This document shows, one piece after another, positions 670-50,653 of a stretch of 55,306 nt of DNA. The translations under genes were made by a program, and so were the position numbers. The notes under the pieces were generated by a model. That model worked only from the letters and a program-made list of their open reading frames with translations, did not search any database and was not told the DNA's origin. Source of the stretch: Psammoneis japonica (Eukaryota); contig QPGO01000213.1 of assembly GCA_008632985.1 (NCBI GenBank), forward strand, positions 62,001 to 117,306. The letters run 5' to 3'. The stretch's first letter is position 1; each line of letters opens with the position of its first letter.

Positions 670-829
670 TGTGCAAACAAACAATGCCTTCACACAGTAA
701 CACGCAGGCTGATGACTGTTTGCTCTACGAGTTCGTACGTAATGAGTTTCTGCGTTTGCTATAGTTTGCTGTGAATAATCGCGCTCTCGCGCTGCGAGCT
801 CTGGAGCAACTGGAGCGCAAATTCCCTCC

Positions 830-3800
830 GGGTGCTCTGAGTGCTGAAAGCAGGCAAAATGAGGTGATGACGACTTCATCGCGAATCACGACCAATCTTG
901 TCATTGTGACATCATTTGCCGAGTGCGACCCCCCTTCCAGAGCACAAACCCACCCCAAAAGCTGTGCTTCACTCAGCCAAGTTTCTTGGCTGAGGCTCCT
1001 GTTGCTCAGGTTTTTGTTCACTGTGGTGCCTGGCCGATTGGCCAGAGAACCTTTGAGGTGGTGTGGGTCTCTCACTTCAGACAGCGGGTCTCCTGGCAGC
1101 AACAGCTGCTCTCAGTTTTGACCAGCCCTGCTCTCATGGCTTCAAGCCATGGCTTGAGATTTGAGTCACTCAAAAACAGCTCCAACTTTTTTGGCTCTGC
1201 ACACATTCAGCGAAGGAGAAGCAGGCCCAAGGGTTCTTGACACCCTCACCTTGTTGACTTTGCCCTCATCAAGTTGCGAGCCAATGTGTTGGCTGCTTCC
1301 TCTGTTGTCAGGTCCAGACTCATGCACCACCCCCTCATCACACCTGCTCCCATGGGAGACAGGAAATCTCACAGTCTTCTGTGCATGTTGAAGCTTGCAT
1401 GTCTCTCTGGCTCTGCTCATCTTCCAAAGTGAAGTGGCTGCCAGCCACTGTGCTGCTTGAGCTCCTTGTGAGTGTCGTGCTTCTGTGCTGCATTGTCAGC
1501 TTACATGCCTTGCCAGTCTTTGCACTGTGCCAGCAGCAGGCACAAAGAAAACAAAACAGAGGCTCAAAATCTTGTGCTCGTGGCACATGTTCTCTCTCAC
1601 CGCACAAGTGTTTCACAGAAAAAGCCTGCAGTCTTTGTGAGGGTTGCTCCTCTGACTCAACTTCCCCAGGAAGACAACACAGGCTCTCATCAGCAGACTC
1701 TCCTGTTGTCTTACAAAAAATCTCCTCTGGCCTGTCCTCTTTCTGCAAATGCCGCACTGAAGTGCTGAGTGCCTTTTTGGCATCTTGAGTTTCTTGTGCA
1801 GCAAGGTCTGGCCCAGAGCACGCCCCACAACAAAGGCTTTGCACAAGCTCTCTCAATCCTTGCTCATCAGCATGCTCCAAGAAAGCAGATGCAGCAGAAA
1901 GCTCTGCAGCTGTTGCAGGCAACAAGGATGTGTGTGCACCACAGGCAAAATGGCAAAAGGGTTGTTGTTGCCAGTCTTTGCAAATGACTGGCTGCTGAGT
2001 TGTGTGGCTGCTTGGCAACTTGCAGCAATGTGTGCCACACTGACTGAGACTCACCCAAGCATTTGTTCTCACAGAGTCCTTCTCAGCCAGCATTGCAGAA
2101 AGAGTCCAAAGAGCTTAAAAAGAGTGGAACTTGCAAACGGCTTGCACTCAAATGCTCATCTTGTCAATGCCTTTTGGTCATTTTCTTGAAACAGCTTCTG
2201 CCTTTGTCATTTTTTCTCCAGCCCCTCTGGCACATGACAACTGCTTGCACACAAAGTTTGGCCTTTCAAAACTGGCAAGCACCAACTCTGCAAGCAAAAG
2301 CACAGTGTCTCATTGTGACTTTTTAGAAGCCTCTGTGGCACCAGCCCCAAACTCAGCACCCAACAAAGAAGTGGAGCTGCGGGCACAAAACTCAGCAGCT
2401 GGTTTGCACCACAAGAAGTGAAGTGCCACCATCTCAAAACACACAGGTGTGGCTCCTTTGATGGAGTTGTCAAGCCAAGTGGCAAATGACATGTGGAGCA
2501 AGGAGAGGGAAATCCAAACAAACAATGGTGCACCATTGCCCCCTGTCTGGAGGCTGAAGCTTCTGAGCAAACAAGAAGCTGATCTCAAGGCACAAGGGCC
2601 AGATTCACAATCTTGGCAGTTTCTTGATGAAGTCCACTGCAGCAGCAAGCAAAGATGTGAAGAACTCTGGGCATTTGCCATTGTTTGTGAGTGTCAGGGT
2701 GCTCTAAAAGATTTTCCTGGGCACACATGCTGCGTGCCTTGCTGAAGAAAGACAAAACCTTGCCACATTCTCTTCTGCATCAAAACCCCAAAAGCACACC
2801 AGAACAATGTCGTCCCCACTCATTTTGCTTGGCAATTTTGCACTGGAGCTGTGCAGGGACACCTTGAGCATGGTGAGAACACAGCAGCCTGGTTTGACCT
2901 TGGCTGCTCAGAATCCACCAGCCGGGGGGGGGGGGGGGGGGGCTCCACTCCTCCTCCTCCTGGTGCACCACACAGCTCTCTTCTCTTGTTTGCCATTGTC
3001 AAAAACAAGGCTTTGTTTGCAACAAATGGATGATCAAGAAATGGCAGTTTTGAGAGTTTGTTGTTGACCGTGTGACTCTGGACAGGTCAGCACCATTTTG
3101 ATTTCTTGGCAGGGCTTCTGCCACATGTCCTCACTTTTGCAGCCATTTTGATGAGAGTGAGAGTCAGCCAGTGCTTGCACATGACACATGGGTGTGGGTG
3201 GTGGAGAGGTGAGAACACAAGGGCAATGACATGTGGCAACATGTGTGGTGCACACGAAGCTGATGGTGCTTTTGGTTTTCTGCCTTTCTTGCAGCTGAAA
3301 GTTGGGAGAAAGCACACACAGGTGATGTGTGCCACTGCTCTCATGCTGTTTCTTGATGTTGTGTGTTGACAAGGTCAGTTGAGTGCAATGGCAAGCTGTG
3401 TGGCACCTCTCTTGCATGACAATGTGTGTGTGTGAAACTGACCACACTTTTCTTTTTTCTGCTTTGCTGTCATCCACAAATTGGCACAAGGCAAGCAAGC
3501 ACATGAAGGAGGCAAATGCCAGCACTCTCATGCTTGGTTGAAACTGAGCAATCTTCAGTGTTGACCAAACAAAGTGGCACATTCTGTGGCAGCAATGTTG
3601 ACACCCTTCTTCATTCATTGTGAAAGAAGCACCCCAGCACATGTGTTCTTGACCTGTTGCATCCAGCGAATGTGTCACCGCCGCTTGCTGCATTCATTGT
3701 GTCTTTTCTCTCTCCCACAGATTTTTCATCTCTGATGACCCTCAAAGCTTTGGAAGTTGAGTGCACACAGCTGCAGCTCAACACATCCATGTGCTTTGCA

Positions 3801-6800
3801 ATTGTTGGCTGGAGTGTGTCTTGCTTGTTCTTGCAGCATCTCCCCTGCCCTCATCCACTTGGCATGTTTGTCACAAAAGAGAGGCGCTGTGACCATCACA
3901 CTCTGTGGGCAGCAGATGGGTGCCGAATGAAAAAAAAAACAGATCACACCCAGCTCTGGCTCAGTCAACAGCCAACAAAGCTCAATGAGGGCCAGCTTTG
4001 TAAGGTTTTCACAGAGTGCTTGGATGACAACACATGAGGTGGCTCATGCATGCAACTGGGCCACAAAATGACTGTGATGGCCTTCTGTGCCTGAGAGGAT
4101 TTTGTGGGGCGAACTTCAAAAAATTGCAAAATTGCCTCAATGCAACACTCACAGAGGGCTGGCAATTGATTTTTGTTCTGTTTTTGGTGCCACTAACTCA
4201 GTCAGTTTTTTGCAACTGTTGCCATTGTTTTGTCTCTGCTTCCTCTGGTGGCTGTTGGCAAACATTTCTGCAAGTTGATGAGCCATGTCTCATCATGTTC
4301 TTAAGAAGCCTTCATGCCACCAGCCCCAACCTTGGTGCCCACAAAAGCAGAGCTTTGAATGTGTGTCAGAACAGCTGGCTCTGGCACCAGCCAAACACAA
4401 GCAAAGTGCCAAGTCTCACAAAAGGTGGGAGAGGTGTGGTCCATTGACAGGGGCACTGAGGTGGTTTCTAATGTAAATTTTCAACAAATGACATGTGACA
4501 AACATTTTGAGTCTTGTCAGTCATTTGAGCCATGAGGTGTTCATTTGCTTGTCTTTGTTGATGCCACTTGCACTCTTTGGAGATTTTGGCCCATGGGAAG
4601 AACAAAGGAGGTGGCTGCCAAAGGTGGCCCAGAAGTGCAAAGTGAGAAGGAAAAGAAGAAGGGAGAGAACAGAAAAGAGAAAGGGTCAATTTGCTGTGTC
4701 GTCAATTTGTGGTCCTTGCCATTTTCCTCAAAACAGTCCACACACAATTTGTGGCACACTTTGGTTCAGCACTGGACATTGGAGCTTAAATTGCAGCAAC
4801 CACGGCCCCTTGTCAGCATGTGATGGACCACCAACCATGTCTTTTGCAAGTGCCTTGCTTCCAATCTGCCTCAGTTTCTTGCTTTCTTTGTCAACTCCTT
4901 GCTCCATCCTTGTCTTTTGCATCTTTTGTCCATGCATCTTCAGAGCTGTTTTGCAAAAGCGGGTCACATCTCACTGCCAAGTCCTGCCAAATCTCCAGGA
5001 AAAGTCATCATTTTGGCATGTTGGACATTCTGTGAATCTGACACTTTGCTGGCAAACTTGTCATTGCTCAAGTTGTCCCTGAAAACAGTTTGAGTCCCAG
5101 CCACAGCTTTCCAGAATGATGCTGTCTCTTGTCAATCAGAAAGCTTTCTTGTTTCCAGAAGGCATGTGTTTTGGCATGCTGGCATGCCAACCTTCTCCAG
5201 CTTGTGGCTCCACTTGTGGAGGATGATGAAAGTCTCCCACCATGGGAGCAGCAGCAGCTGGGGTGACATTGTTGATGCTGGGTCTTGCTGCAAACGGAGC
5301 AGCCACACAGCAGATGGGGCAATGCCGTTGCTTGGTGCTGGAGTGGTCTGAGCAGGTGGTGCTTCAGGGTCAGCCAGGGCAGCCAACAATGCCTCATTTG
5401 ATGATGGCAATGCAGAGGCCGCCACTCCAATGTTGAAGAGCAGCAGTTCTTTTTCCACCTTTGCCCATTCCTTGCATGCTCTGCAATTGGCACCAGCCAA
5501 CTCATTGCATTGTCCCTGAGCTCCACAGAAGAAAGTTGATTCCATGATGTGTTGGCAGCTTGGAATTGCCAGTCAACAAGCATCTTGTGCAGGTGCCATC
5601 ATTCAATGGCACAAAGATCAGCACAACACCTGATGGCTTTGCAAGCTTTCTGTCCTTCTTGTCCAGACTGAACCTGGCCACTCAAAGCCACAGATGTTTG
5701 TTGGCAAGACCAGATGACCAGCAACTGCTGATGTCATGCACAAGATGAACAATGGTCAAACACAGCACAGAGTTTCTTCTCATTTGGTGGTGTGAATGTC
5801 TTGTTGCAATGTGCAGTCTAAAAATCAGGCCACTGCCACAGATCTGCATGTTCATTCTCAAAAAGTTCTACATGCATCTTTGTTGTCTTGGCTCTTTTCT
5901 GCTCAAATGATTGATTGAGGTCTCAAGGCACAGCAGAAAAAACAGTGCCATCTTTCAAGAGCTCATTGCAAAACTCCTTTGTGACAAATGCTTTGCCATC
6001 ATCCTTGCCATCTGTGGTCATGTCAGTCTCAACAAATTTAGAGCACTGTTCTCAGAGCTTCTGCAGATGCTGTGCCCACAGTTCTGCCTCGTGTGCCATG
6101 AAATCATGATTGCTTGCAAGATCTGCACCATCCCCCACAGCCTTCTTGGGGTTTCCAGCACAAGTGACACTGCTGCAGGTTCCAATGGCAGACAGCATGG
6201 GTGCTCTGCATTTGAGCACAGCTGTGGCATGTGCTGAGTCTTTTTTGCAGCCCGGCTTGTTCTCAAACTTTGCACATTGGTTGATGCCACACCAAGGGCG
6301 GGGCTTTTTTTTTGACACCCACAACTTTTTGCCCACATTGTCACATTGACACATTTACAACAGAACTTTTCCTCTTCAATCAGGAGGTCCCTGGTCAAGA
6401 CAATGCCATTGAGTGCAATGTCATTGACAAAATGTCACCTCCACTCAAAGTGACAATGTTGCTTCCAATGCCGCAAGCAAGAGCCTGATTTTCTTCAAGC
6501 AGTGTGGCCACCTTCCAGTGCCATCCAAGGAGCAGCTTCTGCACCTCAACTTTCCAAACAGCAAGAAGACAGAGCCACAGAAGTTTAAAGCAGCTGTGGA
6601 GTTCCTGGAGTCTGGAGTGCATCATGAGCAAGACCAGCAGCACACAATTCTTCCACACGACAACAAATCCATGGATTTTCACAACAGCTGCTGTGCTGTG
6701 CAGAGTGCAGCCTGTCTTCACAGGTCTTGGGGCTCAAGCAGTGGTGCACAAGAAAAATCAAAATGTGTCAACCCTTGGCAAGCAGAGAATGAGCAGCTTG

Positions 6801-8820
6801 GCAGGATTTGTGAAAAAGGTTGTGTCCAAAGCTGCCTGCAGCACTGGCCCAAAAAACTCACAAACCAACGCGCAAACAGGTGGGCCAAAGTGAAACACAT
6901 GTCAAGCAGTTGTGTGCTGCAGTGTGAAAAGAAGCTTGTGCTTCAGAAATGTCTGTTTCAAATTTGGTGCCACACAACTGCTGTGTGTCAACTTGGATGA
7001 AGCAAGTGCACCAAAGCTTCGGTCTTGACTTTGGTTTTAACATCAAATGCAGCCAATGATCTGTTGCGTGAAAATGATGGCACATGATCTGAGATCAAGA
7101 ATTTGGGCAATCAGATCTCTCTTTTGAGGATGCCCTGGTTTTTTCATTGTTGCTTGCACACCATCTGCAAAGCCACTTGGGGTGCTGGTGGCTCTGGCAC
7201 ATTTGCAACACCACAATTGGCACTTGGCACACTTGACACAACACAGCTGGCACTTGAGTGATTCACTGGTGTGGATTTGTTGACGTCCTGCTCATCTGCA
7301 GGGATTGTTTCCATCCATCATGCACTTCTTTGCACACCTGGCTTGGATTCTTGGGGAGAGTCTTGCACTCAACTGGCAAGGTTTGCTGGAGACTCACAGA
7401 AATCCTGCTGTTGGCACTCTCTGTCAGAATTTCCTCCCAAGCAGCCGCCCGCCCCCAGCTGGTGGCTGCTCCTGCTTCCCACACACAACCCCAAATGTGC
7501 CCCAGCAGGTCGATGCCATGGGAGACGCTGACCAAACATTTGCCAACAACTCTCCAACATTTTCAGACAACGGCGACAAATTCAAATGCTGAGGACCACT
7601 GCTGCTTTTGCATTTCACAGCTGAGCTCAGACACTGCCCGTCTGGTTCCTGATGAAAACTTTGGGGCACCAACATGACCTCCACCTGTTTTCATCAATTG
7701 AAACTTGACAATTTTGACATCCACTTCTGCAGGAGATGTGGTGCCATTGCCTCCAATCTTTGCCAACCCAAAGTCATGATTGGAAGGCTTCACCATTGCA
7801 AAGGGCAGCTTTTCAGCAATGGCAAGGTCTTGAAAGTTGCAATCTCGAAGGATCACCACATTGCCCCATCCACCCCCAAAACATGCAAGGCAACCTTCCT
7901 TGTTGATGGCGCAGGACTGGTCACCGTTGTCAAACACAGCCATGACATTTCAAGTGGGGAGGCTGCAAACCACTCTGGGATTGCCACAAGAAATGCCTGA
8001 ATGACCAAGTTGGCCCGATGCACTGCTGCCCACAAGAAAGATTGATTGTTGTGAGACACAGACCCATCGACAAATCCAGGGGCAACAGAGATGTGCAACA
8101 ACGGCATCAACAATGACTGTGACGGAACAGTGGATGAGGCCAATTGCATCAAATCTCCATCCACTTTGCCTTTGGATGCCCCGTCCGCATCGTTGCAACC
8201 ATGGAATGAGCCATCAGTCTCTTTTGCCCCCCAAGTGTGCACCCCTTGCATGCACCCTCAAATGTCCCGAGCAGCACACCATCCATTTCTTCCTCCCTGT
8301 TGTTGTCCCAAGCAATCCCATGTGTCTGTTCCTTTCTCGCCGAGCACTGGCATGCTCCCCTCCAGTGACCCCTTCTCAGTTGCTCCTTTGGCGGTCTGTT
8401 CTCCTGCCTGTGAGAGAAGACAAAAGCGCCTCTCTCAATGAAAAAATGAGCATTTCAAAAGGAAATTTGCCGCAACAATCATGAGCTGCACATGAAGCCA
8501 CGACACATGGTGCATTGCTGTGGACATGCATTGCAGCCATGAAAACATGGCACGATGAAGGCCTTTTGTTCAAGTTCTCTTCGGCCCCATTCTCGGATCA
8601 CAACAGCTGTGCAACCCCCCCCATGATTTGTTCTCAATGCATGAGGACAAGATGTGAAAGAAAGCAACAAAGTCTGTTGTGGCATGGCAATGATCTGTGC
8701 AAGGCACACAAGTGCCGTGCTGTTTTTGCGCCGCGGCAAAACATGGGTGCTGCTGTGCCAACAACTCCTCCTCCCACACCTCTCGCGGTGCAATCTCGTC
8801 CGGCTGGCTCTTTAAGCAGC
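830..8820. mobile_element. Degenerate repeat/TE-derived block A, depleted of TpA and CpG (element family not identified)
   Basis: About 18 TA dinucleotides in ~8 kb (manual count), very high TG/CA, no intact gene; ORF translations are rich in C/H/Q and nearly lack Y. TE origin is inferred by analogy to blocks C and D, which contain retroelement motifs. Confidence 0.65.
7380..8400 (+). pseudogene. Hypermutated remnant of a secreted-type protein with a MopE-like putative metal-binding repeat
   Basis: Hydrophobic leader LTEILLLALSVRISSQAAA near 7390. At 8045-8150 it reads DTDPSTNPGATEMCNNGINNDCDGTVDEANC, matching the D-x-D-P-x-x-NPGA-x-E-x-C-x-x-GID-N-D-CDG-x-VDE repeat. Many stops and frameshifts. 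Confidence 0.6.
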
Positions 8821-9156: not shown

Positions 9157-9196
9157 GAGCCGAAGCATCCTTTACGCTGTTGTAATCAAACGAGTC

Positions 9197-12319: not shown

Positions 12320-14340
12320 GTAACATCACCGCGTGTGCGACGACATCGAAAGCAACAGCAGCAACCGATGATGATCATTCGAAGACGGCCAGAAGTGAGA
12401 TGCCGGCAGAGCTTTGCCAACGTCAAACATGATGTCAATGGGAATCATTCGGCTCTCAGAGGCATCACGTAGAAATTGTGCAGGAGAGCACCAGAAAAAA
12501 GCCCCAAGTCCATCCGTCCCGTCCACCTGCTGCTTCTGAACACTGGCTTCTCGGGAAATCGATTTGTGCCTTTGATCAGATGACATTTCAATCATAAAAG
12601 TGGGTGCCACACATTTGGTGCAGTCGTGCGAGCAAGGGGCAGTTGTCGTGCACATTCATTCGTGTGCTGCGCAAGTGAGATCCGAGTTGATTCTGGCACC
12701 GCAGTCAGCATGTTGCTGGGTTTTTGTTGTCTGCTCAGCCTGGCATTGATGTTTTCTGTGAGCAACAGGTTGGCACACTTTTGGCAAGGGCAGTCTGGCC
12801 CAAGCAGGGTCATCTGGTGCTTGCGTGGGGAGAGACCAGCACCGCCCTCCCATTGAGGACATCTGGAGCTGATCTGGGACAAAGTGATGCGTGATCTCCT
12901 GAGGCAACAATGAGTTGCTCACACCAAAGTGATGCTCATTCTCACTTCAACACAGCGGCACACCTCCAAGTGTGGCTTTCACCATTTCTCAGCTGGTTTG
13001 GCAGAGATTCTGTGCAGCGCTGCTTTGGCTTCCTTGCCAAACAGCCCATCACCTGAAACGACAAAGGGAGCAAAGTGGCGACATTGTTCAAGGCAGGGCT
13101 TGAGGTGCTTGCGCTTTTTCTCTCATTGGCATTGTCCCAGAACTTCTTCTGGTGTCTTGGGCAGGTGTGATTTTGCGTCTGTGTCTGGAGTGCGAACATC
13201 CATGATGGCATCTGTCCTTTTTTGTCCCAAACCCTTCAGACAAGAGATCTCCGCGGTCGCCATCCTTGGACATGTTGGAGTTTGTGTTGCTTTGTGAGTT
13301 GTTGGAGGTGCCCGGGCTTCCTGAGATGCAACCAATGGGGTCAACTCGGCTCTCAGAGTCATTGCATGGAAATTGTGCAAGAGAGCACCAGAACAAAAAG
13401 TCTCAAGTCCATCCATCCATCCACCCACATCTGAGCACTGACTTCTCGGGAAATCGATTGAAATGTCATCTGATCAAAGGCACAGCTCTTCACCATGTGG
13501 GTCAAAATGATTTTGATCAGATGACATTTCAGCTGACTTCCCGAAAAGTCATCAGCCCCAATCTCACCCTCCCACACAATGTTGTGCACATTGTTTCTAC
13601 TTTGCACACAGTTTTGCATTTTTCCTCAAATGCAAAACATCAATTGTGACCGACGCTACATTTTTGAATGACTCTGTGGGCACAACATTGCAACACGAGC
13701 GATGGTGGTGTTTGCACAACACAAATTTGCATTCACCGTTGACACAGAATGTAAACCAGAAATTTCAGAAAATTGCAACACGCCCAATGCCACACAACAT
13801 GCACACACACACTGAACACGCCACTCGCCGATGTCAATCACCATCAAAGACATCTTCCGGAATTGATGACAACTGTTTCTGGAGCTGCTTGTGAATGTCC
13901 GTGTGAAGCCAACTGGAAATGCTCTCACCCTTTTCATCTGAATCTGGTTTGATGAGCTGAGTTGTGGAAGTGAGCCCATGCTGTCGGGAGTGGAAAGACC
14001 CCTTGCTGTGGCAGCTCTTCGTCAACCTCACTCTCATGCCGCTCGCTCTCGCATGTCTTCAGAACAGCAGGTTTGTTTTTAAAAATGTCATCTCAACGGA
14101 TTCACCTGGTGACCCCTTTTAAAGGAATAAGCAGAACTTGGCAAGGTTGATTTGCCTCTGATGAATTCTGCAGCAGCACGCCCTGTGGATGTCCGGGACG
14201 AAATCTTCTTCAATTTGACACTGTTGCCAAAAGTGTTTTAACATGCGCTCAATTGCAGCATTGTCAATGAGCATGCAAAATTCTTTTGGCAACTGACTGG
14301 CAGTTTTCAATGACGTTGCCGCATCGGCTCTTTGCCATCG
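12320..14340. mobile_element. Degenerate repeat block B (TpA-depleted) with ~150-200 bp direct repeats at 12435-12590 and 13333-13531
   Basis: Shared tcggctctcagag...gaaattgtgca.gagagcaccaga...cttctcgggaaatcgatt...tttgatcagatgacatttca. The second copy also has an inverted repeat tgaaatgtcatctgatcaaa / tttgatcagatgacatttca (13460-13531). Confidence 0.7.
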
Positions 14341-14519
14341 TCGTTTGTCGGCTTTTCTCGTGCTTCAGTGCGTGGGCGGGCGGGCAAAACAGTCAGTCGA
14401 ACTAGTCAAGTTTCTTCGAACACCAATTTTATTAATTTTTTCAATTCTATATAAAGTTGATTATGGAACGGTTTCTACGGGATGTTGTGCCCATACATAC
14501 ATAGATTCCTGTTGTTCGG

Positions 14520-18717: not shown

Positions 18718-19599
18718 GATTTGTTGCGCTCCACTAGCTAGCTTTCAATCTCATCGTGGCGACACAAGCTCAGTCAAAACGGTACTTTTGGCCGTTGACT
18801 GTCATTTTCTCTGTCTTTTCGAATTCAAACGAACAAATGAATATACAGTAATACATACATAGAATCATAGAAGACATAAATAATTTAGCGATGTACAACG
18901 TCACAATGGCGATAGACGTACGCACGGAAAGGCAGCCCAACGGCTTCCCATCATCAGCTGCAGCATGAGAGAGGACCGACCGCACCGGTGCAGCAGTCCT
19001 GCAAAATGGACATGTCTGGTGCGCGACTTTGTTGCAGAAGTTGAGTCATCCTGCCTGCCCATCTTCAAACTCAGATTCAGGCAAGACTCTGGGGGAGTGC
19101 CGCTCTGACATCATGATGTGTGCCATCAACTGACACCACAAAAGGTGTGTGGCCAATTTTCTGATTTGCTGGCTGGTGGTGGCTGGGTCGCAGAAGGTTG
19201 GCCATTTTGTTCCAACATTTTTGTTTTGCACTTGACTCTTGGAAAAGTCACCCACATCAGAGCGTGCATTGCAGTGATCCAGACCACCTTTCTTGCAGTG
19301 ATTTTTTTTAATCCATTGCAGGCAAAATTCTGTTGTTTCAAACCTTGACAGAGTTGTGCAGCTGGCAATGACATGTCAACTGTGACAAATTGTCATTTTC
19401 ATGCTGTGGGAGTGCTGACCAGACTCCCCCTCCCTGTGAGGAAAAATGTTTCACCATGAACAGGGGCAAGTTTTCCCTGTGAGAGTGCACACCCTCTGTC
19501 CCCACAAAACCTGTAAATTGGGGTCATTTGCGCTGCACCAAGAACATCACATTTTGTTGTTTGCGTTTAAATTGGATGATGCTGATGGAGACAACACCC

Positions 19600-20125
19600 C
19601 TGGAGTTTGCAGCAGCAGTTGCAACTTGCTTTCTTCAAGTGCCGCGCTGCTGGCAACCACCTTGTTCATTGCAAAAAAGTGCAGAACATGTTGTGAGAGA
19701 GCAGTGCAATGTGGGTGAACTAACACTGCCAACAGGAACGGCAACATGGACTTGCCCGTGCTGATTCTGGAGCAGGCGAGTTTGCAGCAGGAGCTGCTGC
19801 TCCATCATTTGAAGTGCCACTGCTCCACTCCACCTCATTCATTGCCAAAAAGAGCAAAACACATTGGGAGAGCATGACACAGATGAGCTGGCACAACCCA
19901 TGGGAATGGCAACATGAGCACGCCAGTGTGTCAGACGCCACTGATTCTGGAGCAGGTGAGTTTGCAGCAGAAGTGCTGTTGCTCCTCTGATTGTCCACCC
20001 TCACTCATTGCCAAAAAGTGTGGAGCACACATTGTGAGAGCATGTTGTGGATGAACTGACATGAACTGCAACACACACTTGCTGGTGCATGGGTGCATCT
20101 GGTGCCACTGATTCCAGAGCAACAT
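19600..20125 (+). repeat. About 3 diverged tandem units of ~175-180 bp
   Basis: Anchors gagtttgcagcag (~19603, 19778, 19958), cattgc.aaaaag (~19667, 19840, 20006) and tgatt(c)(t/c)(g/a)gagca (~19762, 19943, 20109). Confidence 0.75.
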
Positions 20126-20327
20126 GGGCGCTGGTGTGCCGCGCAAGACGTTGAGCACCCAGCTCCACCCCTGCAACTCAAAGAAAACACAAAAAGAAAG
20201 CATGTGAGCAAGCAAACAACATCTCAAGTGCCACAGAACACACTTGCTGGAACAGCTGTGGGAACAAGCACCGCCTGCATGTGCACCACATTGCACAAGG
20301 CGCTGCTCGAACAACAAAGTCATCGGC

Positions 20328-20770
20328 AATGACCAAGTTTGCCCCGCACCTCCTGTGCTGTGGACGGTTCATTGATGACATGTTTAGAGTGGTGTGGACC
20401 AGAAACAGCAGAGAGACTTGGGAAGCCTTTAAAAATGAGCCCAACAAATCAGTCAACCTCCAGTGGATTGCCCCCTCCCCACTCTCTGCCTCTGCAGTCT
20501 TTCTGGATCTGGATGTAGAAATTGGAGAAGAGGGATGCAACACAAGTGAACATGTCAAAAACCAATGAAGCTCTTTTTGTTGTGCACACCTTTTTTAAAG
20601 AGTGTCATGTGTGGTGAAGAACTTTTCATGCATGTGATTCTGAGAGTGGCAGGAACGAGCACCGCCTGCAGTCTTTCTGGATCTGGACATGGTTTTTGGA
20701 GAAAAGACGGATGCAAATGCATCAGAAACCAATGAACCTCCTTTTGCACATTCCTTGTTTGAAGAGCATC
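20328..20770 (+). mobile_element. Penelope-like element reverse transcriptase/thumb fragment, partly duplicated
   Basis: KFAPHLLCCGRFIDDMF...WEAFK...NLQW...SAVFLDLDVEI and MHQKPMNLLLHIP resemble the PLE consensus YYxRFIDDxF...FLDL...TYxKPMNLYLYIP. Confidence 0.8.
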
Positions 20771-23570
20771 ATTTGTGGCAACTTGTGATGATTCTGGATG
20801 CAAAACTGTGACACACACAATCATGCCAACACTGCAGAAAAGCAAGTTTGTGATGTGCGTGCACACAACAACACACCAGCAGCTCAGCATTTTGGATGCG
20901 GTGGATTCGTGACAGCACACTCACGATCACGAAACTCAAGCTGCACCCAAATCAAAACCCATCTTGACCAGCCAGAAGGACAGCAGGTTTCACCATGCAC
21001 TGAGCTGCTGTCATTGGCCAATGGGGCAAAGTCATTCACCACCATGTGGCCGGTTGTCGATTTACAGATTTGCGACCACACACAGGATCCACGTGAATTG
21101 TGACAGTGCTTGCTTTCATTTTTCAAACTTTGGGGAGAGGGTGCACTGTTGTGAAGTGTGCAGAAAATTGTGCATGTAAAAACACACTGAAAACGCCACA
21201 CAGACCAATGGGGCTGCACAAATCTGGGAAACATGAAGAAAAATGAAGGTGGGTCATGTGCGTGTGCATGAAGCACTGCATGTGCAGCAGACTGCACATG
21301 TGCAAAGACACACACACATGAGTGAGGAGGACAAAGTTGCAAACCAAGTTCAAATTGATTGCAATCAAAAGAAAAGTTGATGAGACATCAGATGAAATGC
21401 ACAAAACAACTGCATTTTGCTGAGCACTTTTGCCGGCAATTTTTTAAATTCTGCTTGTCAACAATTTTTACAATGCACATTAAAAAATTTACAAAGGAAA
21501 GTGGAAACCACTGCATTGCAGCCACTGATGCACTGTCACCCTTTGTCATGCTGCAGGTCAAAGGTCAAGTGCATGATTGCATTGCTGCCTTGCCATTTGA
21601 GACAGGCCCAACTTGGCAATTTCTCCACCTCCCCAGCTCTTGAGAGGGCTGACACACCAGGAAAAGCAGCAGCAGCAAAGTCATGTGCACCACACATGGT
21701 GCTCCCTTCTTAAAACAAAGACAAGGATCAAGGTTGAATCTAACTGTGTTTGAGCAGCCCTTTGCACAGCTTTTTCACAGAAGCATGCTGGAGACTGTCG
21801 GAATCCAGACAGGCCTTTCAGCACCTGATTTTGGCTGAAAACCCTCTGTGGCAATTTTTTGTGTCTGCTGCACCTTCTTGATGTCACAGCCCATCAGAAG
21901 AGTGGCAGCACAACCCACTTGACAAGCAGCCCATGCCATTCTTTCAGCATCGGAACAAAGAAAAAAACCATGTGTGTGGCTGCTGCACACTGCTGGCGCG
22001 CAGGTCTCAAAATGTCAATGCCTTCTTGTTTCTGCAAATTTTGTTGCAAACACAATGTGCCATGCCTTGCACATCAAGGGTGCGCTGTCAGGGAGTCAGT
22101 CAAGTTTGAATGCCCAATTGCCAGTCAACGCACTCCTCACATTGATGGCTCTTGTCAGTGTCATCTCCCACACACCAGCAGAGCAGCTTGTTCTTTGTTT
22201 CAATTTTTTGTGACCCCACAACCCACTTGTAAAACACTGACATGGCTGCACACACCTTGCCCAGAACATGTGATTTGGCTTTTGGCCAGAGCTTTGCATT
22301 GCTCTGGGAATGTGCAGTGCTCAGCAGCACCAAGAGAACAGCAGTGTCATTTGGCATGCCAAGAGACATTGCATTGTGGGTCATGGTTGCATTTTGCTGT
22401 GTGCTTCTTGAACTGGAGCAAAGGGCAGGCATGGAGCAAGCCTCAGACCTGGGCAAAATTGAGATGACCAAACTGCCATTGCCATTCCAAAATGAGCTCT
22501 TTGGCCTGCTGGCAAGGTTTTTGCTGTCTGCATCCAGCAATGCAAGAAAATGACAATTTTTTGCTGGCTCTCCTTTTTGACATGTGTGTCATTCAATCTT
22601 TTGCATTGCAGTCTTGTCAAGCACTCAAGTGCATTTCAAAAATGCAACTGCACATCTCTGTGCATGACTTTGTTGCTGAGAAATGATGCCCCAAGAGTCG
22701 CAAGCAAGAATGGTGCATTGCATTGCAAACAAAACACACTTTGTAGAAGATGAAAAGTGCAGCCAATTGGCAAATGCCCATCTTTTCCAAACAGCCCAAG
22801 CCATTTGTGCAATGCCCTCACAGAGCCCAATCATTGGGAAAAAAATGAGAGACTGGCAAAAAGAATGGCACAGGGTGCAGAGCCACACCCAAGATCAACT
22901 CCAAAACAAGCACTCAAAAGACACCCAACTTTGTCACAGTTCAAACATCTTGTGACTTTTTCAATGACATGGCGCAGAACACATCACACTTGTTTTGCAC
23001 TCTCCTTCTCATCACTTCTCAGGAAAGCAACTCCCAAGCTTTCTGACTTGTGGCCTTTTTTAATGCTGTGCAGGAGAGAACAAAATTTGTCAGGTCAAAT
23101 GATGTGCAGCTTGCACACAATGTGCATGCCGGAAGTCATGCAGAGCAGAGACACCAACCAGATGATGTCTGTGTCAATTGCTCAATTTGCTTTTGATCAA
23201 AAGCAAGCATCATCTGCTTTGACAGAAGAGCCACGGATGTCATTTGTTTGACACTCCCACACATTGGGGTGCATCAATTGCCCCCACCATGAATCAGAGC
23301 CAACTTGAGAAGCCGATTTATTTACATTTGGACGTTGCACTTTTTTTGTCTGGTTCTTCTGTTGCATCAAACACCTTGGCACCAACAAGACTTTAATTGG
23401 TCTTGCCTCATTGGCTCAGCAAAAGACAGAAGCTTGAGGGTGGCAACTTGCTCAAAATGGAGGCAGCAACTGCAGCTCATTCACAAGCACAGGGAGAGAA
23501 GAACATTCTGACAAAAAGAAGAGACCCAGGTCAGTGCATCAAGGTAACTTGATGAACACCATGGAGAACT

Positions 23571-23790
23571 GGGGACATGAGGAAGGCTTCCAGAATCGAG
23601 AACTGCCATCCGCATCCGAACGATGCATGCCAATGAGTCAAGTGGTCAGCACTGCTGCACAAAGAGTCAATGACTGCCACAGAGCTCTGGGGAGATGAGG
23701 AAGGCTTCAAGAATTGAGAAATGCCATCTGCATCTGAACGATGCATGCCAAGGAGTCCAGTGGTCAGCACTGCTGCACAAAGAGTCAATT
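23571..23790 (+). repeat. Two-copy direct repeat, ~100 bp match with ~119-bp period
   Basis: atgaggaaggcttc.agaat.gagaa.tgccatc.gcatc.gaacgatgcatgccaa.gagtc.agtggtcagcactgctgcacaaagagtcaat occurs twice; three of the differences are CG vs TG. Confidence 0.85.
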
Positions 23791-24692
23791 GCCATGCTCA
23801 TTGAATCACACAGAGACAGTCACCTGGAGGTCCAGGCTGTTGGCCAAAAGATTGAATCGAAGAAGCAGAAGGTCGTGCGGATGGCCACAAAGAAAATGCC
23901 ACCTGACTTCAACAGCAACAGCTGGGAAGACTTGGTTGCCTCGGTTTCCTTTGAAGAACAGGCAGCATTCCTTTGACCACTAAAGCCTTCAGTCTGTTGG
24001 GGTTAGCCAGAGACTTGTGGATGCAATCATGAATGGATCAACGGCGATGGACGTTTTCTTTCCCTTTTGTTCCATCGCTGTAGCCGTGCCACCTCCACTC
24101 TGTGGGATTCTCAAGCGTAATGAAACCGGATTGCAACTTTTTTCTCCATTCCTTCTTCAGCTTGAGACTTTTTCGATTGGTTTCTTTCGGGCCTGCTCGG
24201 GTGAGCTTGAGCCAGAAACCACCGCTATCCGACGAGGATAGAGAAGGCAATGTACTATCATTATCGTCCTTTTTCGTAGCGCCAATAGTATCTATGCACT
24301 ATTGTTTACCTCGGGTCAGTAGTGTTGCGTATCTATACCGCACCGCTTCCCACGCACTCTGCAATATGTGATACTAAATACAATACGCCCAAAGTTCGAC
24401 AAATGTCTAATGGTAGACAATAAAAATACCACAGTAGTACGTCAAACGTCTAATGATAAATAATCAAGCCGTATAGATGCCGAACGAATCGCCATATATC
24501 GGTATGCAAAGGCTCAATAAACTACAATGTCGTTCCCACCATGCTTCAGGATATTGATACTTGAGTGAATTTCACGACTTTTCCAAGACCCCGCAATACC
24601 GTACATGCTGAGAGTCAATCTCCGCTGTCTACTTGAGTACTGCCTTTTCTATAGGTAGGAAGACAACCATCAAGTCCCTCCACTTCCTTCGC

Positions 24693-34743: not shown

Positions 34744-35309
34744 AGAAGGACACACTGACAGCGACGTATGAAAGTCCATTATTCTGGCCGAGAATTGAGT
34801 TAAACTTAAATCCTTTATACTTTGTAACGATGGTTTTGCTCTCTATCTATGACTGGTTAATGTGTAGCTTGGGAAACATAAGTAACCCGAGAGCTATGGC
34901 AGGTTGTCACCTCCTGCATCAATGTACTACACCTTTGCTTGGAATGTTTTGGAACGCACACCGTGAAAACCGAAAAAAGAATTCCTTGCCAAGTGCCACC
35001 GAAAAAATCAACTACCCTGCCGATCAACATCATGACGTTATTGTTTGTGCTTTTCCTTCTTCCTGTCACGCGCGCCACTCTACCAGCGCTGAATCTCACA
35101 AATTGCTGGCAACATGTGGCAATGAGTTCCGACTCAGACTTCCAAGTGGAAACGGGGGAGAGGGGGCACAACAACCCGCAAAGAACAACATGCAGCATCT
35201 ATGCAGGTTTCTGCGCTGGTGCACAATGGATGATTTTCAAGAAGCAGAAACTCTGCTGTGCCTGTGTGCATCTCATTTCTTTTGTCGCACCGCAGCTCTC
35301 TCAGAGTTC

Positions 35310-37770
35310 CCTGGCCAGATGGGCCTTGCAGCGCTCAACCACAATTCTGACAGTGTTCCCAGGGTTCCACCAGAGATTGCTGACATCCTTGGTCTGCATT
35401 TGGTGTTTTTGTGGGTTGCATCAGGGCTTTCCTTTCACTCTGGAGCTGCGAGAGTCCCCCAGCTCTGACATGGATGAAGTGACTGGGGGGCACAACTGCG
35501 GTGCAAGATCGGCCTCACAGCACTCTGCCACAGTTCTCAAAGTGTTCCCTGGGTGCTGTCAGAGACCCTCAATGCTGTCAGCCTGCAGTTCTTGTGTTGG
35601 TTGGTCACACATCTGGGTGTCCTTGCACTCTGGAGTTGGGAAATCACAGCTCTCACTCTGGCATGGATGAAGAGTGACTGTGTGGGGGGTGCAACTGCAA
35701 ACAGATGAGCCTTAAAACACTCCACCACTGTTCTCAAGTGTTCCCCAGATTGCACCAGAGAGTTGCAGTTTCTTTGGCCTGCAGTTGTTGTTTGGTCAGT
35801 CAGAGTCAAAGCTGTGTTCTGCCTCAAGCTTCCGTGTGCAGTCTCCAATGGGGGGGTCAAAATGGCCCATTTGTCACAGCATGCAGAATCTGCATGGGTT
35901 CCAGCATTGAACTTGCTGCAAAAGACAGAGTCAGCACACATGACCTGCTCTGTGCAAGTGCCACCAAAAAACTCAAAAACCAACATCATGGTGGGCAATC
36001 GGAGCGGATTTTGGTCATTTCATGAAAAAACCAAGTGAATTTTTTACTCTCATCTCTGCCAGATTTCTGCAGTCAATCTCTGAACAGCCCGTGTGTCATT
36101 CCAGATGGGCGGAAGAGAGAAGAGTGAAGACTCTGACTTCAAAAACTGAGCAAGGCATCAACAACCATCTTTGGTCTTTTGTCACCATGGCTCCATCTCT
36201 GAGGGCATTAAAATCTCAATGGGAAGCCAGAGAACACTTTGAGAGCAGTGGTTGAGAGTTGCAAGGCTTGCCTGCTGGTGCAGCTGTGCCAAGCAAAGCC
36301 TCCAACCTCACACAACTGCTGCTGGCCAACTCAACAATTGCAGGCTGAGGGCATTGAAGCTCTCCAGAGAAACCCTGGGAACTTTTTGAGAATGGCAGCA
36401 GAGTGTTGCAAGGCTAATCTGGTGCAGTTGCAACCCCCCAACTGCTCAATCCATGCCAAAATGAGAGGAGAAGAATTCCCAGCACTGCTCCAGAGCAAAA
36501 AGACACCCTGCAGTGCAATCAACTGACCCAACAACTGCAGGCTGAGGGCATTGAGTCAAGGTCTCAAGAAGAACCCAGGGAACACTTGAGAATGGTGATG
36601 GAGTGTTGCAAGGCTCATCTGGCACAGTTGCAGCCACCAGGGACTCAAACCATGCCAGAGTGAGAGCTGAAACTCCTGACTCCAGAGTGAAAAGACACAC
36701 ACTGATGCAGCCAACCCACCCAAAAATTGCAGGCTGAGCACATTGGATTTCTCCAGCAAAGCCCAAAGAACACTTTGAGAGAATGGCGGTGGAGCATTGC
36801 AAGGCTCATCTGGAGCAGTTGCAGTCACCAGTCACTTGATCCATGCCAGAGTGAGAGCTGACAAAACTCCTGACTCCAGAGCAAAAGGACACACTCGTGC
36901 AGCCAACCAACCCAAGAACTGAGAGCTGAGGGCATCAGGGCTTGACTGCAGGCTGAGAGGATTGAAGGTCTCCCATGGAACCCAGGGAACACTTTGAGAA
37001 TGGTGGTGTGGCATTGCAAAAGGCTCATCTGGCACAGTTGCAGCCACCAGACACTTGGCCCATGCCAGAGTGAGAGCTGAAACTCCTGACTTCAGAGTGA
37101 AAAGACACCCTGATGCAACCAACCATTACAATGACTTCAGCCTGAGAGCATTGAAGGTCTTCAGTGGATTCCAAGGAACACTTTGAAAATGGCGAGTGAT
37201 TCATGGCACTGAAACTCCCAACTCCAGAGTGAAAGGACACCCTGGCACAACCAAACAGCCCAACAGCTGCAGGCTGAAGGCACTGAAGATCATGCACGGA
37301 ACACTTTGCGAATGGTCGTGGAGTTTTGAAGAGCTCATCTGGTGCAGCTGCAGCCCCCAGTCCCTCAATCCATGCAAAAATGAGAGGAGAAAAAAATTCC
37401 CATTTGCTCCAGAGTGAAAGGACACCCCCTGGTGCAACAAACCAACCCACAACTGCAGGCTGAAGGCATCAATGGTCTCCTGTGGAACCCAGGAGGAGGC
37501 CACACTTTGAGAATGGTGATGGTGGGTTTGTTGAAGGGCTCATCTGGTGCTGCTGCAGTCCCTGGTCACTCAATCCATGACAAAATGAGAAGAGAAAATT
37601 TCCCAACTGCTCCAGAGTGAAAGGACACCCCGATGCAACCAACCAACCCAACAGCCACAGGCTGAGGTCATTGAGTCAAAGGTCTCAAGAGGAACCCAGG
37701 GGACCATTTGAGAATGGTGGTGGAGTGTTGAGAGGCTCACCTGGTGTGGCTGCAGCCACAATGCTCCAGG
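35310..37770. repeat. Diverged ~190-200 bp satellite: about 3 units in minus orientation (35310-35800) and about 9 units in plus orientation (36230-37770)
   Basis: Anchor ggaacactttgagaatgg at ~36386, 36586, 36776, 36994, 37183, 37306, 37507 and 37708; its reverse complement (ttct..agtgttccc) at ~35345, 35535 and 35730. Confidence 0.85.
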
Positions 37771-38259
37771 CACACAGCAACATGATGACAGATTGGTGCT
37801 GACCTCATCCAGCCCACATCAACTCCAAGATCTTCATTGGTCAATGCCCCCAGTGCTCATGCTCTTTCATGCTTGCCACCTTCTTGCCAATTTGAACAAG
37901 GGCTTCCCTGTGAGCCACAATGCAAATGTGTGCTCCATTGCATTTGAAGCCATGACGGCAATGATGAATTGTCCCTTGTGGGTCATCGTGACTCACCTGA
38001 AGACTGGCAGGAGTGGCTGCACTGTCAAGAAACCAGGTCACCTCATTGAGTCAATGAAGGCTGAAATCCACATCCCAACCAACAAGTTGCCAACTGCCCA
38101 AAAAAAATCCCAAGTGCTCAGCAAAGTCAGAAACATTGAACAAACAGTTTTTGATGGCACCACAATGGGACAGCATTGCAAATGCTCTCAGATCAAAAGG
38201 CTTGCATGCTGTGATCAACATTTTCAGCCAAAGTGCCAATCAAGAACATGACACACTCT

Positions 38260-38930
38260 CAAAGAAATGCACCCTCTCTGGCTCTTGCAGCTGTTGCCAA
38301 TTCTGCTGACAACCCAAAACTTGGGAGGAAGCCATGAGTGGACCTGATCTCGCCGCCTGTCTCAAGGCTTGTGATGTCAAAATTGACTCCCTTGTTGATG
38401 ACAAAGATGCTTGGGAAGAAGTTGACTGCCAAGATTGGACAAACATCCTGTCATCCACTTGGGCCTTCAGATGCAAACAATGCCCTGATGGGTCAATTCA
38501 AAAACACAAAGCCTGATTCTGTGTCCGTGGTGACAAGAAATTGGAATGTGTTGGCCACTTTGATGCCTTTGCTCCACTGCAGATTGGACAATGGCACAGC
38601 TGATGCTTGTGCTGTCTCAAATTTTTGAGCTCTCAACCAAACAAGTTGATTGTGTTGCTGCTTTTGTCCATGCTCCAATTGACAACGATCCAAAAGCATG
38701 GGACAACATGATGCGTGAAGAGTGAGAGCACTCTGGACAATCGCGGGGCTTTGACTCCAGCTGACATCATGCCAAGCTCCAAGCACTGTGCCATCAAGTG
38801 TCAGGCTTTGCTTGCAGCTGAAACCAAATCAAGTCACTGTGTCCAAGATTGCAACAGATTTTAACAAAGGGACTCATCACAGCCAAATTGAGTCTGTTCA
38901 CAAGTTGCTCTGCGGTTGGTGGCTTCTTTG
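38260..38930 (+). mobile_element. Ty1/copia (CoDi-like) pol remnant: RT N-terminus joined by deletion to the RNase H C-terminus
   Basis: WEEAMSGPD...AWEEVD...NILSSTWAFRCKQCPDGSIQKHKA*FCVRGD; QVDCVAAFVHAPID; ILTKGL...KLLCGW. Confidence 0.92.
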
Positions 38931-41339
38931 TTGAAATCATGCATGACTCGCACACGCTCATGCTTGCGCGTGCAATTTTCTGCTTCCAGCCTTGCACCTG
39001 CAGCACTGTGTGGTGCTCTCTAGAGAGTGCAAAACAAGACATTGGCACGCAGCTCCGTTGATTGCATTGCTGTCATTGGCCCTGCTGCTGGCAATGCATT
39101 TGCCATTCACCCTCCAGCTGATCTCTTCCAACTCTCAGACAACAGTCATTGCACCCACAAAATGACAACAAAGCATCATCATCTTTGCTGTCATCCATGG
39201 TAAATCATGCATCATGCATCCAGAACCATGAGCACAGCATGTCACATCAAGCACTGGGAGACCATGACATGCATTGCCAGCCCCTGTTGGACCTCTCCCC
39301 AACAAACAAGAACAACGCAGTCTGCCAGCAAGGAAGAAGAATGCATGTGCAACAACAAAACAAAGGCACAAGACCCTGCACAGCATGCCAACAACAATTT
39401 AGATTCGCTTGATCAAGCAGCTGCAATGCACTGGGCTGAACGTGCTCAAGTGCTGCAACACAAACTGCACCAGCAACAAGCAACAAGACACAAAGCAGCT
39501 TGTTCCCAAGTTTGTTTTGGAAAGAAAAGCATTCAAGCTGAAGTGCAAGGAGCAGTTGGACATTTGTTGTGGGGAACTGGCACCAGAATTGCAAGAAGAA
39601 AACAAGGAATTGCAACATCAAGTGAGTGCACTGGAAGAGGTGAGTTGCTCCTTGTGTCAGCAAGCATCTGAGTTGAGCCGATTGGCACAAGTTTCAGACT
39701 CAGGAAATTGCAAGCTTTGGCAAGAAAAGAAAGAGCTGCAAATGGAAGCCAACAGACAAGACAAGCAAACTCTTGAACATGAGTGGACAGAACAGCGCAG
39801 TGACTTGAGCAAGCTGAGCATGCACAAGCAATTGGGTGATGATGCGGAACCCAATGTGATTGGTTGGGAAACATCAGGGTGAAGCACAAGTGCTGTGAAG
39901 GAAGCAGAGGGGCCTTGTCTTTTTAAATTGCTGGGCATTTTTGAAGAGGCCATGGGTGATGAGGTTGAAAAGTCTTGGTTGGAATCTGACAGTCACATGA
40001 TGTGCCATGAAACGGACGAAACATCCACTCCACTGTGCAAGGAATGTGTCGCCGTTTTGGAGGCTCTCACACAAATGTGATGAGTGCTGACAATGAAGAA
40101 GAAAGCAACAAACATGCAGATGTTGCATTGCTGGTGGGTTTGACAAAAGGAATTCAGCAAGAAGCATCACACCAGAGGAGGAAGTGTCAGTCATCAGATG
40201 GCATCCGCGACTGAACGAATCATCCACTCAAGATTTCAAATTCTGTCCTTCAATGGAAGAAGAATTTCGGCATTGCCTGACAATGTTGTGTGTGCAAGCA
40301 TCCAACAAAATGCAAACCTGCAATGAGTTGCTGCACAAAGAATGAAGTGGGTTGCTGTGCAAAACATTGGATTTGTTGGAAGCCAGCACCAGGCAGTCAA
40401 TGGCATGGAGACACGCGATTGTCGCGCGGTCACAAACTGACTCGACAAACTTGTTTCTTCTCATGCACTCAAGTGCCGCCAACAAAAAGACACTCTCAAC
40501 AAACAATGCAATTGCAGTGGACACACGTTGGCTGCCCATGTCACACAACATCATGGGCAGTGAATGCCGCGTGCAGCGGCATTGGATGGCAAGAGTTTGA
40601 GCTCAGTCCTTGCATTTGGTGTGCATTGTGCATGAATCAAGTGCCGGCAAGACCTGCCATGATGCAGTGGCATCCTCCACCTGCACTGAATCATTGTTGA
40701 GACCACCTGTGTTGCTGCTCATGGCATCCAACAGTGACTCGGCCCATCCCACCCCAGCTTTCACAACTTCGATCCAGACTGTCATTGTGAACAAACCGAG
40801 TTTCACTCCCCCCCACACACATGCCACTGACTGCAACATTTAGTCCAGTCAAGCAAGCACCCTTGAAGCCCTGCAACCATCATCCCTGCATCCATCTGCA
40901 CACACATGGAGTGCGACAGGGGTGCTTTGGACACAACCAAAGATCAACTGGTTTGGCATTTCCATGGCACTGTCCAAGATGTGTTGACTGCTGCTGGTCC
41001 CCATTTTTTTTAAGTGTTTTACTTGTGCGCCGAGCACAGCGGATGATCGTTTCGATTTGACTGTCAGTGCCCATTGCATCTGACTCTCTCCAGTTTCTCA
41101 TGTTTTTAATGAAGCATTTTATTGTGGCGTCCTGCATGCTCAACGCAAGAGCGCTGCTTGCCTGTCGGAGGGAGTTTCGGGAGACATACGGACAGTGTCG
41201 GAGGGAGTTTCCATTCGGGCGAACGGCAAAAAAAAACACGCCACACCATGGCGTAAATCTTCAAGGAAGAAACTGCTTGATTTACCGTAAGTGCCAAGAA
41301 AATGTGTTTTTAGATCACTCGCTCCTATCACGGGTTGCA

Positions 41340-50614: not shown

Positions 50615-50653
50615 ATCTTTCTCCTCTCAAGCGAGCAAGTAGAGGTATGGTAG

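Follow-up and report, generated by a model that had tools for sequence, protein, structure and literature searches.

The stretch of DNA investigated in this study, referred to as the window, comprises 55,306 nucleotides of Psammoneis japonica (positions 62,001 to 117,306 of contig QPGO01000213.1, GenBank assembly GCA_008632985.1) and it contains host genes coding for calreticulin, PhoX, an ABC transporter, DnaJ and a VTC/SPX protein. Located between these genes are five blocks, termed A to E (Table 1), which are nearly devoid of the dinucleotide step TpA and which, because of their depth-based copy number and a contig that bypasses block B, are recognized as repeat-like insertions. An earlier note, made by a model from the letters of the sequence, had described for part of block A that the few remaining TpA are almost all preceded by T or followed by A and had proposed that the process responsible for the loss is specific for flanking bases. 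Our analysis has found this bias in each of the five blocks, where it follows a rule that is finer than the one originally proposed and that relates to the bases located 3' of the adenine on either strand.

Table 1. Features of the window (positions refer to its first nucleotide; TTA/TAA, TpA preceded by T or followed by A)
Feature	Position	Strand	Definition and properties
TpA-poor block A	777..8812	.	TpA positions; encloses the earlier note's range 1490..8820
Earlier note's range	1490..8820	.	18 surviving TpA, 17 TTA/TAA
MopE-type metal-binding motif remnant	8055..8138	+	Cys-rich; Pfam PF11617, E=7e-9, residues 1-28 of the open reading frame 8055-8438
TpA-poor block B	12322..14402	.	200-bp bins and TpA positions; CpG lost only partly
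TpA-poor block C	18920..24225	.	200-bp bins and TpA positions; core 19442-21442 is a high-copy repeat
TpA-poor block D	35082..41010	.	200-bp bins and TpA positions; 10/12 surviving TpA are TTA/TAA
Array of ~190 bp unit in block D	35314..37775		direct copies 36185-37775, inverted copies 35314-35793; copies differ mainly by CA/TG swaps
TpA-poor block E	44154..46764	.	200-bp bins and TpA positions; 5/7 surviving TpA are TTA/TAA

The blocks were detected in 200-bp bins and their borders were then refined from the positions of TpA, resulting in a first, slightly narrower set with 69 TpA inside and 1294 outside the blocks and a refined set with 72 and 1286, respectively. Defined by the latter, the blocks cover 23,963 bp, equivalent to 43% of the window, compared to 31,175 bp outside. 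In block A, the TpA at position 776 is followed by none until 1502 and the step becomes dense again from 8813, and in the 1-kb windows 1001-8001 the ratio of observed to expected TA is 0.00-0.08, with CA and TG at 1.49-2.07. The switch from TpA-rich to TpA-free DNA at block borders takes place within less than 100 bp, and patches that are very dense in TpA were found directly at the borders (18842-18919, 24226-24300, 14430-14498, 43978-44153 and 46765-46900). Summed over all blocks with the first borders, the observed/expected ratios amount to 0.05 for TA, 0.22 for CG, 1.77 for CA and 1.83 for TG, compared to 0.58, 0.98, 1.18 and 1.19 outside, while the G+C content is similar (0.49 in the blocks vs 0.48 outside). 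The described lack of depletion in AA and TT runs is equally found, with respective ratios of 1.23 and 1.26 in the blocks and 1.13 and 1.14 outside. With outside counts scaled to block length, the blocks show a deficit of about 850 TA and about 960 CG and a surplus of about 1750 CA and TG, and the approximate match between both is expected from a conversion of TA into TG or CA combined with a conversion of CG into the same products. The two products are nearly balanced (TG 2566 vs CA 2755, with a share of TG of 47-49% in every block), which indicates that both strands were hit alike and rules out a strand-biased deamination that is coupled to transcription or replication.

The copy number of the blocks was estimated from Logan short-read contigs of a sequencing run of the accurate-read type (run X1), which share exact 31-mers with the window and have a unique depth of about 56; this run stems from the same sample as the assembly and is thus not independent of it. 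The depth of block A corresponds to 1-2.4 times the unique depth, whereas block B with a depth of 302-687 would be present in about 5-12 copies and the core of block C, with a depth of 1516-3714, is found at 27-66 times the unique value. One contig of this run extends from 12322 straight to 14700 and skips block B, with its left joint coinciding with the exact TpA-free border. The insertion may be missing in one haplotype or in a further copy of this locus. Other copies in the same run also document a change in place since, among the 40 of 251 differences that were listed, TA is found at three positions where the window contains CA or TG (8086 ATAG, 20044 ATAT and 21976 GTAT), all located in contexts that are sensitive according to the survivor data described below. 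A related picture is provided by the array in block D, whose direct and inverted copies share 65-76% identity and whose unit of about 190 bp is of nucleosome size. In the eight full copies, adjacent double differences are most often CA/TG (125 of 533, with the next class at 39), both TG and CA are present in 16 column pairs and CG is kept in some copy in two of these 16. As judged from the aligned copies, such swaps are the trace that would be expected if ancestral TA or CG had been converted independently in each copy. Two further tandem duplications were observed in the blocks, a 118-bp unit present 1.9 times with 92% identity (23569-23789, block C) and a 151-bp unit present twice with 99% identity (45994-46295, block E), and, given its high identity, at least the latter pair probably postdates most of the hypermutation.

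The range described by the earlier note contains exactly 18 TpA, with the T located at positions 1502, 1712, 2116, 2324, 2705, 4001, 4194, 4302, 4469, 4474, 4787, 5819, 5869, 6039, 6356, 6586, 7038 and 8813, and the single deviating CTAC, which had been placed close to 5868, is found at 5869. Six of these sites are TTAA, 11 are either preceded by T or followed by A (TTAB or VTAA) and one is neither (VTAB), and the proportion of 17 in 18 contrasts with 489 of 1294 (38%) outside the blocks (binomial p=8e-7). When all blocks are pooled, TTA/TAA accounts for 60 of 69 survivors within the first borders (p=3e-16, Fisher odds ratio 11); within the refined borders the count is 61 of 72, compared to 485 of 1286 outside (p=3e-15). 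The bias is present in each block taken singly, including block C, for which it had been claimed before and where it concerns 23 of 25 survivors. It persists if compared to a first-order Markov expectation derived from the blocks themselves (p=2e-14) and to non-block DNA either inside (p=6e-43) or outside of long open reading frames (p=8e-34). A count of all NTAN tetramers in the blocks and in non-block DNA (Table 2) shows that survival deviates strongly from proportionality to ancestral frequency, whichever of the available estimates is used.

Table 2. Survival of TpA by tetramer class (count seen in the blocks divided by the non-block count scaled to block length, refined borders)
Class	Seen	Expected	Survival
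TTAA	23	46.1	0.50
CTAA/TTAG	17	69.2	0.25
GTAA/TTAC	18	119.1	0.15
CTAC/GTAG	8	146.0	0.055
CTAG	2	43.8	0.046
ATAA/TTAT	3	138.4	0.022
ATAG/CTAT	1	99.2	0.010
GTAC	0	97.6	0
ATAC/GTAT	0	159.9	0
ATAT	0	69.2	0

These counts support the previous proposal that VTAB sites were erased and that TA flanked by A/T tracts is relatively resistant, with 9 VTAB remaining compared to about 570 expected and a graded sparing beside A/T runs, but they also show that the distinction of resistant sites as TTA or TAA is too coarse, since TTAT and ATAA were lost to a similar degree as VTAB (3 seen vs about 128-138 expected). An A preceding the step or a T following it thus overrides the protection. In the survivors, the share of A at positions +1, +2 and +3 is 0.60, 0.65 and 0.39, compared to 0.21, 0.28 and 0.28 outside, and the signal is lost by +5, as expected for a short-range effect of context. 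The protection increases with the length of the A run. For runs of one, two, three, four, five and at least six A, the fraction with a 5' T is 0.010, 0.019, 0.049, 0.049, 0.145 and 0.189 in the blocks and 0.242, 0.154, 0.174, 0.148, 0.179 and 0.219 outside, which corresponds to about 4%, 12%, 28%, 33%, 81% and 86% of the outside value. Of the survivors defined by the first borders, 44 of 69 adjoin an A/T run of at least three bases, compared to 177 of 1294 outside.

The survival of the different classes is well described by a model where each TpA consists of two half-sites, one per strand, that are characterized by the bases located 3' of the A of the respective strand and whose doses are additive. 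The doses obtained for the base at +1 are 0.29 for A, 1.23 for G, 1.86 for C and 3.7 for T (likelihood-ratio statistic 128.7 compared to a model without flank effect, p=1e-27), and the model reproduces all 10 tetramer classes (with 23 seen vs 26.5, 17 vs 12.7, 17 vs 14.6 and 3 vs 2.6 as examples). An A at +2 confers further protection (likelihood-ratio statistic 72.7, p=6e-15), also in cases where it follows a C or G (TACA, TAGA), and TA half-sites followed by CG are completely absent among survivors in the blocks compared to 162 outside. Additional information is contained in the products of asymmetric sites, where the identity of the product tells which strand was hit. The larger excess of ACAA compared to ATGA (128 vs 28) for ATAA, of GCAA compared to GTGA (215 vs 35) for GTAA and of CTGC compared to CCAC (202 vs 101) for CTAC, together with products of CTAA and ATAG that lean the same way, agree with a 3'-side rule in five of six asymmetric classes, while the number of new TG relative to a strand-symmetric expectation, pooled by the next base, is 0.52 for A, 1.61 for C, 1.08 for G and 0.75 for T. 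Together, the additive fit and the product asymmetry suggest that the bases located 3' of the changed A are decisive. A rule residing on its 5' side (position -2) was rejected, as it would require a product asymmetry in the opposite direction.

The loss of TpA is accompanied by a loss of CpG, whose properties are distinct. Its survival in the blocks is highest beside G/C, in GCGC (0.55) and CCGC/GCGG (0.47), and lowest beside A/T, in ACGT (0.08) and TCGA (0.13). The losses are also not co-extensive since the CpG-poor core of block A only spans about 930-7400, whereas its flanks at 777-930 and 7400-8812 and most of block B (12322-14402) are free or almost free of TpA and have kept much of their CpG. 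In these regions the loss of TpA thus either extends further than the loss of CpG or it runs faster. The different borders and flank rules indicate that two processes were at work, and the loss of CpG is, as far as can be judged from its sequence pattern, probably a consequence of the decay of methylated CpG. The zones that lack TpA and keep CpG may reflect a spill-over of the TpA process into neighbouring unique DNA, including the gene remnant with the MopE-type motif.

The described features are best explained by a mutator that converts A:T to G:C specifically at TpA with a rate that depends on sequence context, with the survivors constituting slow sites and the five blocks being silenced repeat or foreign DNA, an interpretation to which we assign a probability of about 0.6. 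In such a mechanism, a TpA-specific transition (TA to TG, or TA to CA if the other strand is hit) would have run nearly to completion in the five blocks alongside a separate and slower loss of CpG. Both adenines of a step would be attacked independently, with the risk of each adenine being set mainly by its own 3' neighbours, where T or C at +1 would confer a high, G an intermediate and A a low risk, which would be lowered again if A occupies +2 or if the A run is longer. A TpA would consequently only persist where the adenines of both strands react slowly, leaving TTAA and the junctions T(n)A and TA(n), whereas ATA/TAT, GTAC and similar steps would be gone. The depletion, the conversion in place, the statistics of the flanks and the symmetry of the strands are documented by the sequences, and from these the polarity of the changes, the relative rates and the enzyme are inferred. 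The likeliest agent would be an adenine deaminase acting on DNA or some enzyme of equivalent function, in analogy to the proposal made for the alga Bigelowiella natans; a thymine-directed chemistry on the opposite strand would lead to an indistinguishable outcome in the sequence, and the flank rule itself may originate from enzyme specificity, from lesion repair or from the shape of the DNA.

Several observations speak against this interpretation and temper our confidence. The expected counts are proxies, derived from non-block DNA or from a Markov model of the blocks, in place of aligned ancestral or unmutated copies. The balance between lost sites and products is poor if calculated per context, with products flanked by G or C above and those flanked by A or T below the prediction from non-block DNA, which implies that the ancestral flank make-up differed from this proxy. 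Among the products, the ATAC class (115 vs 105) does not follow the 3'-side rule and TG followed by T (0.75) lacks the excess that is predicted from the survivor data; the decay of CpG yields the same products and thus confounds this comparison altogether. The survivor at 4194 (CTAA) reads TC in run X1, and some survivors are thus possibly young or polymorphic. Finally, the enzyme is proposed by analogy, and the placement of the host among diatoms from sequence relies on a single protein, the VTC open reading frame described below.

An alternative view would be that most survivors are TpA steps that were made anew after the hypermutation had stopped, by ordinary context-biased mutation such as the conversion of C to T at TpC or substitutions at the ends of homopolymers. 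A C-to-T change at TCA would generate the observed flanks by construction (TCA to TTA and TGA to TAA) from sources that are plentiful in the blocks (1173 TCAN plus reverse complement), and both the clustering of survivors at A/T runs and the difference at 4194, which is of the transversion type, would be compatible with such an origin. It fails, however, to account for the distribution of classes, as new TpA arising in proportion to the CA/TG sources should consist to 41% of ATAN/NTAT and to 7% of TTAA, whereas we found 6% and 33%, respectively (p=4e-23), and an origin from TT/AA sources does not match either (p=1e-121). Even the TCA source, for which 19.9 TTAA, 12.0 TTAC, 13.2 TTAG and 16.0 TTAT are expected, does not match the observed 23, 18, 17 and 3 (p=0.002), and the deficit in TTAT implies that a context-dependent erasure would still be needed. 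This mode of origin, which had been raised in the earlier note as an alternative, might thus apply to single sites but it is insufficient overall and we regard it as unlikely for the bulk of survivors.

We consider it similarly unlikely that the mutator has no preference beyond TpA and that the flank rule is instead imposed by a context-dependent repair of the lesion, with removal of hypoxanthine by pathways of the endonuclease V or AAG type, or by the structure of A-tracts limiting access to the base. Endonuclease V cuts on the 3' side of inosine, and the observed signal extends to +2 and +3 on this side. The steady climb of protection with A-run length to at least five bases is equally what would be anticipated for a structural property of A-tracts, and both strands are hit to an equal extent. 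Conversely, flanking G or C offers no protection (with none of 97.6 expected GTAC and 2 of 43.8 expected CTAG remaining), which shows that the relevant variable is neither the stability of the duplex as such nor its breathing, and the additive half-site model requires no term at the level of the duplex.

A very improbable scenario assumes that the blocks never had an ordinary TpA content and that they instead consist of foreign or satellite DNA that is natively poor in TA and rich in CA and TG, or that selection has kept TTAA and TAAA motifs. There is no protein domain left to prove an ordinary coding ancestry and the products have flanks of another composition than those in non-block DNA. Such a native composition is at odds with the exchange of CA and TG at the same columns of homologous copies, with the CG that is kept at two of the 16 column pairs, with the TA found in other genomic copies, with a single rule that is common to five unrelated blocks and with the approximate equality between the deficit in TA and CG and the surplus in CA and TG. 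Although assemblies that are solely based on long reads may contain systematic miscalls where the DNA is densely modified, the odds of an assembly or base-calling artefact at modified bases are minute, because the contigs of run X1 agree with the window without any difference over 4498-6148 and 6172-7234 and with 2 differences over 7216-9249, which demonstrates that the blocks are real.

Little of the original content of the blocks can be recognized. The MopE-type motif, which is located in the zone of block A that is free of TpA and keeps CpG, is the only domain match above threshold in any block, and it is accompanied by only two sub-threshold chance matches to Pfam in the scanned block open reading frames. 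No viral or transposon domain was identified with Pfam in stop-to-stop reading frames, a search that included the 126 frames of at least 110 amino acids in the entire window and 142 of the 169 block frames of 62-109 amino acids, and no homologue at E <=0.001 was found for the reading frame 20887-21387 on the reverse strand of block C. A run of about 18 G is located at 2925-2942 in block A. In a second sequencing run (X2), listed as 'DNA?', the record over 14780-16348 maps in two pieces and skips 15451-15547 in a way that resembles a spliced transcript, and this run may thus hold RNA; its cover over blocks A to C is restricted to two bins with depths of merely 0.32 and 2.51, from which nothing was concluded. 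A third run (X3), which like the other two stems from a single sample, gave no match to the window. In the region of about 50400-50820, two gaps with a total of 168 N adjoin an 83-bp tandem repeat (50661-50818), and the local G+C content drops to 0.39.

Among the host genes, the VTC open reading frame (52720-54006, reverse strand) shows best matches of 62-73% identity, with one partial match at 82%, and all organism-named matches (11 of 11 among the 120 matches listed) are diatoms, which places the host outside the chlorarachniophyte B. natans. In 80 metagenome loci with relatives of VTC (531 kb), we found none that resembles the blocks, a negative result of little weight since metagenome contigs under-represent repeats. 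These loci contain 23 overlapping 1-kb windows with a TA observed/expected ratio below 0.2, of which 22 belong to contigs with 69-82% G+C and normal CpG, while the remaining one (locus L061) combines a TA of 0.18 with CA and TG of only 1.37 and 1.31.

If taken beyond the window, our results would lead to the tentative view, to which we give slightly less than even chances, that besides the rhizarian B. natans also diatoms, as members of the stramenopiles, possess a TpA-specific A-to-G mutator acting on DNA in genome defence, which would have erased TpA from much of their repeat DNA. Its substrate code would distinguish 5'-T-A-Y as fast and T-A-G as slower from T-A-A, T-A-N-A and A-tract junctions as nearly immune sites, with both strands being treated independently. 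In this case, the code would provide a fingerprint to select the enzyme among candidate deaminases, or to identify a thymine-modifying or repair pathway, and the process would constitute an old and widespread eukaryotic counterpart of the fungal repeat-induced point mutation (RIP) that proceeds in the opposite direction, towards G+C. Up to now, a single chlorarachniophyte is the one case in which foreign DNA has been described to undergo a TpA-specific and GC-ward hypermutation, without a known enzyme. If the same process has shaped 43% of this window, it would span two eukaryotic supergroups and perhaps be a major overlooked force in the composition of algal genomes and the control of transposons. 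The flank rule would be the first quantitative statement on what the mutator reads beyond TpA. It speaks against spectra of the ADAR or polymerase eta type and against simple DNA breathing, and it offers a testable substrate motif for candidate deaminases and a prediction of the TpA sites that would be expected as targets in published mutation-accumulation data. Full-text literature searches have revealed no report of TpA-erased blocks in diatoms, and a literature search retrieved no paper that links A-tracts with adenine deamination at TA.

A comparison with known systems illustrates the distinct character of this footprint. With RIP, it shares the hypermutation of repeats or foreign DNA by transitions, the fairly sharp borders and a dinucleotide as target. 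RIP converts C to T mainly at CpA and thereby raises TpA and A+T, whereas here TpA is erased (0.05), CpA (1.77) and TpG are increased and G+C is unchanged, which rules out this process, and the single-copy block A (depth 1-2.4 times unique) was affected as well. Polymerase eta, whose motif WA includes AA and whose spectrum the earlier note had suggested for comparison, also causes changes from A:T to G:C at TA; its spectrum does not resemble the one found here, in view of the undepleted AA and TT (1.23 and 1.26), and the near-total and strand-symmetric erasure is unlike the error spectrum of a polymerase. Enzymes of the ADAR family catalyze a conversion of A to G with a preference for 5' U/T, in a preferred context listed as 5'-UAG (PMC10661471, Table 1). 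In contrast to the blocks, where the 3' base ranks T > C > G > A, they act on double-stranded RNA and favour a 3' G, and a footprint of the ADAR type was discarded since the dose of a 3' G (1.23) is below those of C (1.86) and T (3.7) and since AA is not depleted. For the tRNA adenosine deaminases TadA and ADAT2-3, from which adenine base editors are derived and of which TadA was equally proposed for comparison, the same table lists the context 5'-ACG after U33 (PMC10661471, Table 1). The resemblance to these enzymes is partial: the 5' T is obligatory, as CA is no target and rises to 1.77, and a 3' C is favourable, with an excess of TG followed by C (1.61) and the absence of TA|CG survivors (0 vs 162 outside), whereas, judged from the survivors, the sensitivity with a 3' T is no lower. 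Their natural substrates are loops of tRNA and, to our knowledge, neither a strong preference for TAT nor a protection by A at +2 has been described for TadA or ADAT enzymes.

The closest relationship is found with B. natans, where mutation-accumulation lines have shown a de novo hypermutation of A to G and T to C that is confined to TpA, with 231 de novo hits, and that targets an integrated giant virus and a virophage, altering single-copy DNA in place (Mettrop et al., 2026, bioRxiv 10.64898/2026.01.13.699255). The main text of this preprint contains no mention of CpG, flank, context, trinucleotide or diatom. Its definition of a cluster comprises at least three successive windows of 1 kb whose Rho(TpA) is <=0.43 and whose Rho(CpA+TpG) is >=1.52, and in our window such clusters are formed by the 1-kb windows 1001-8001, 19001-23001 and 35001-40001, with a TA observed/expected of 0.00-0.11 and with CA and TG each at 1.65-2.14, except that CA only reaches 1.49-1.60 in windows 8001 and 36001-38001, which nevertheless average at least 1.65 over CA and TG. 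In both organisms, TpA is replaced by TpG and CpA on both strands. The two cases differ in their hosts, in the de novo nature of the events that were measured in B. natans, in the co-depletion of CpG that is observed here, in the 43% of the window that is affected, and in the extent of depletion, which is far more complete in the blocks (TA 0.00-0.08) than in the giant-virus region of B. natans, for which the preprint gives a Rho of 0.45.

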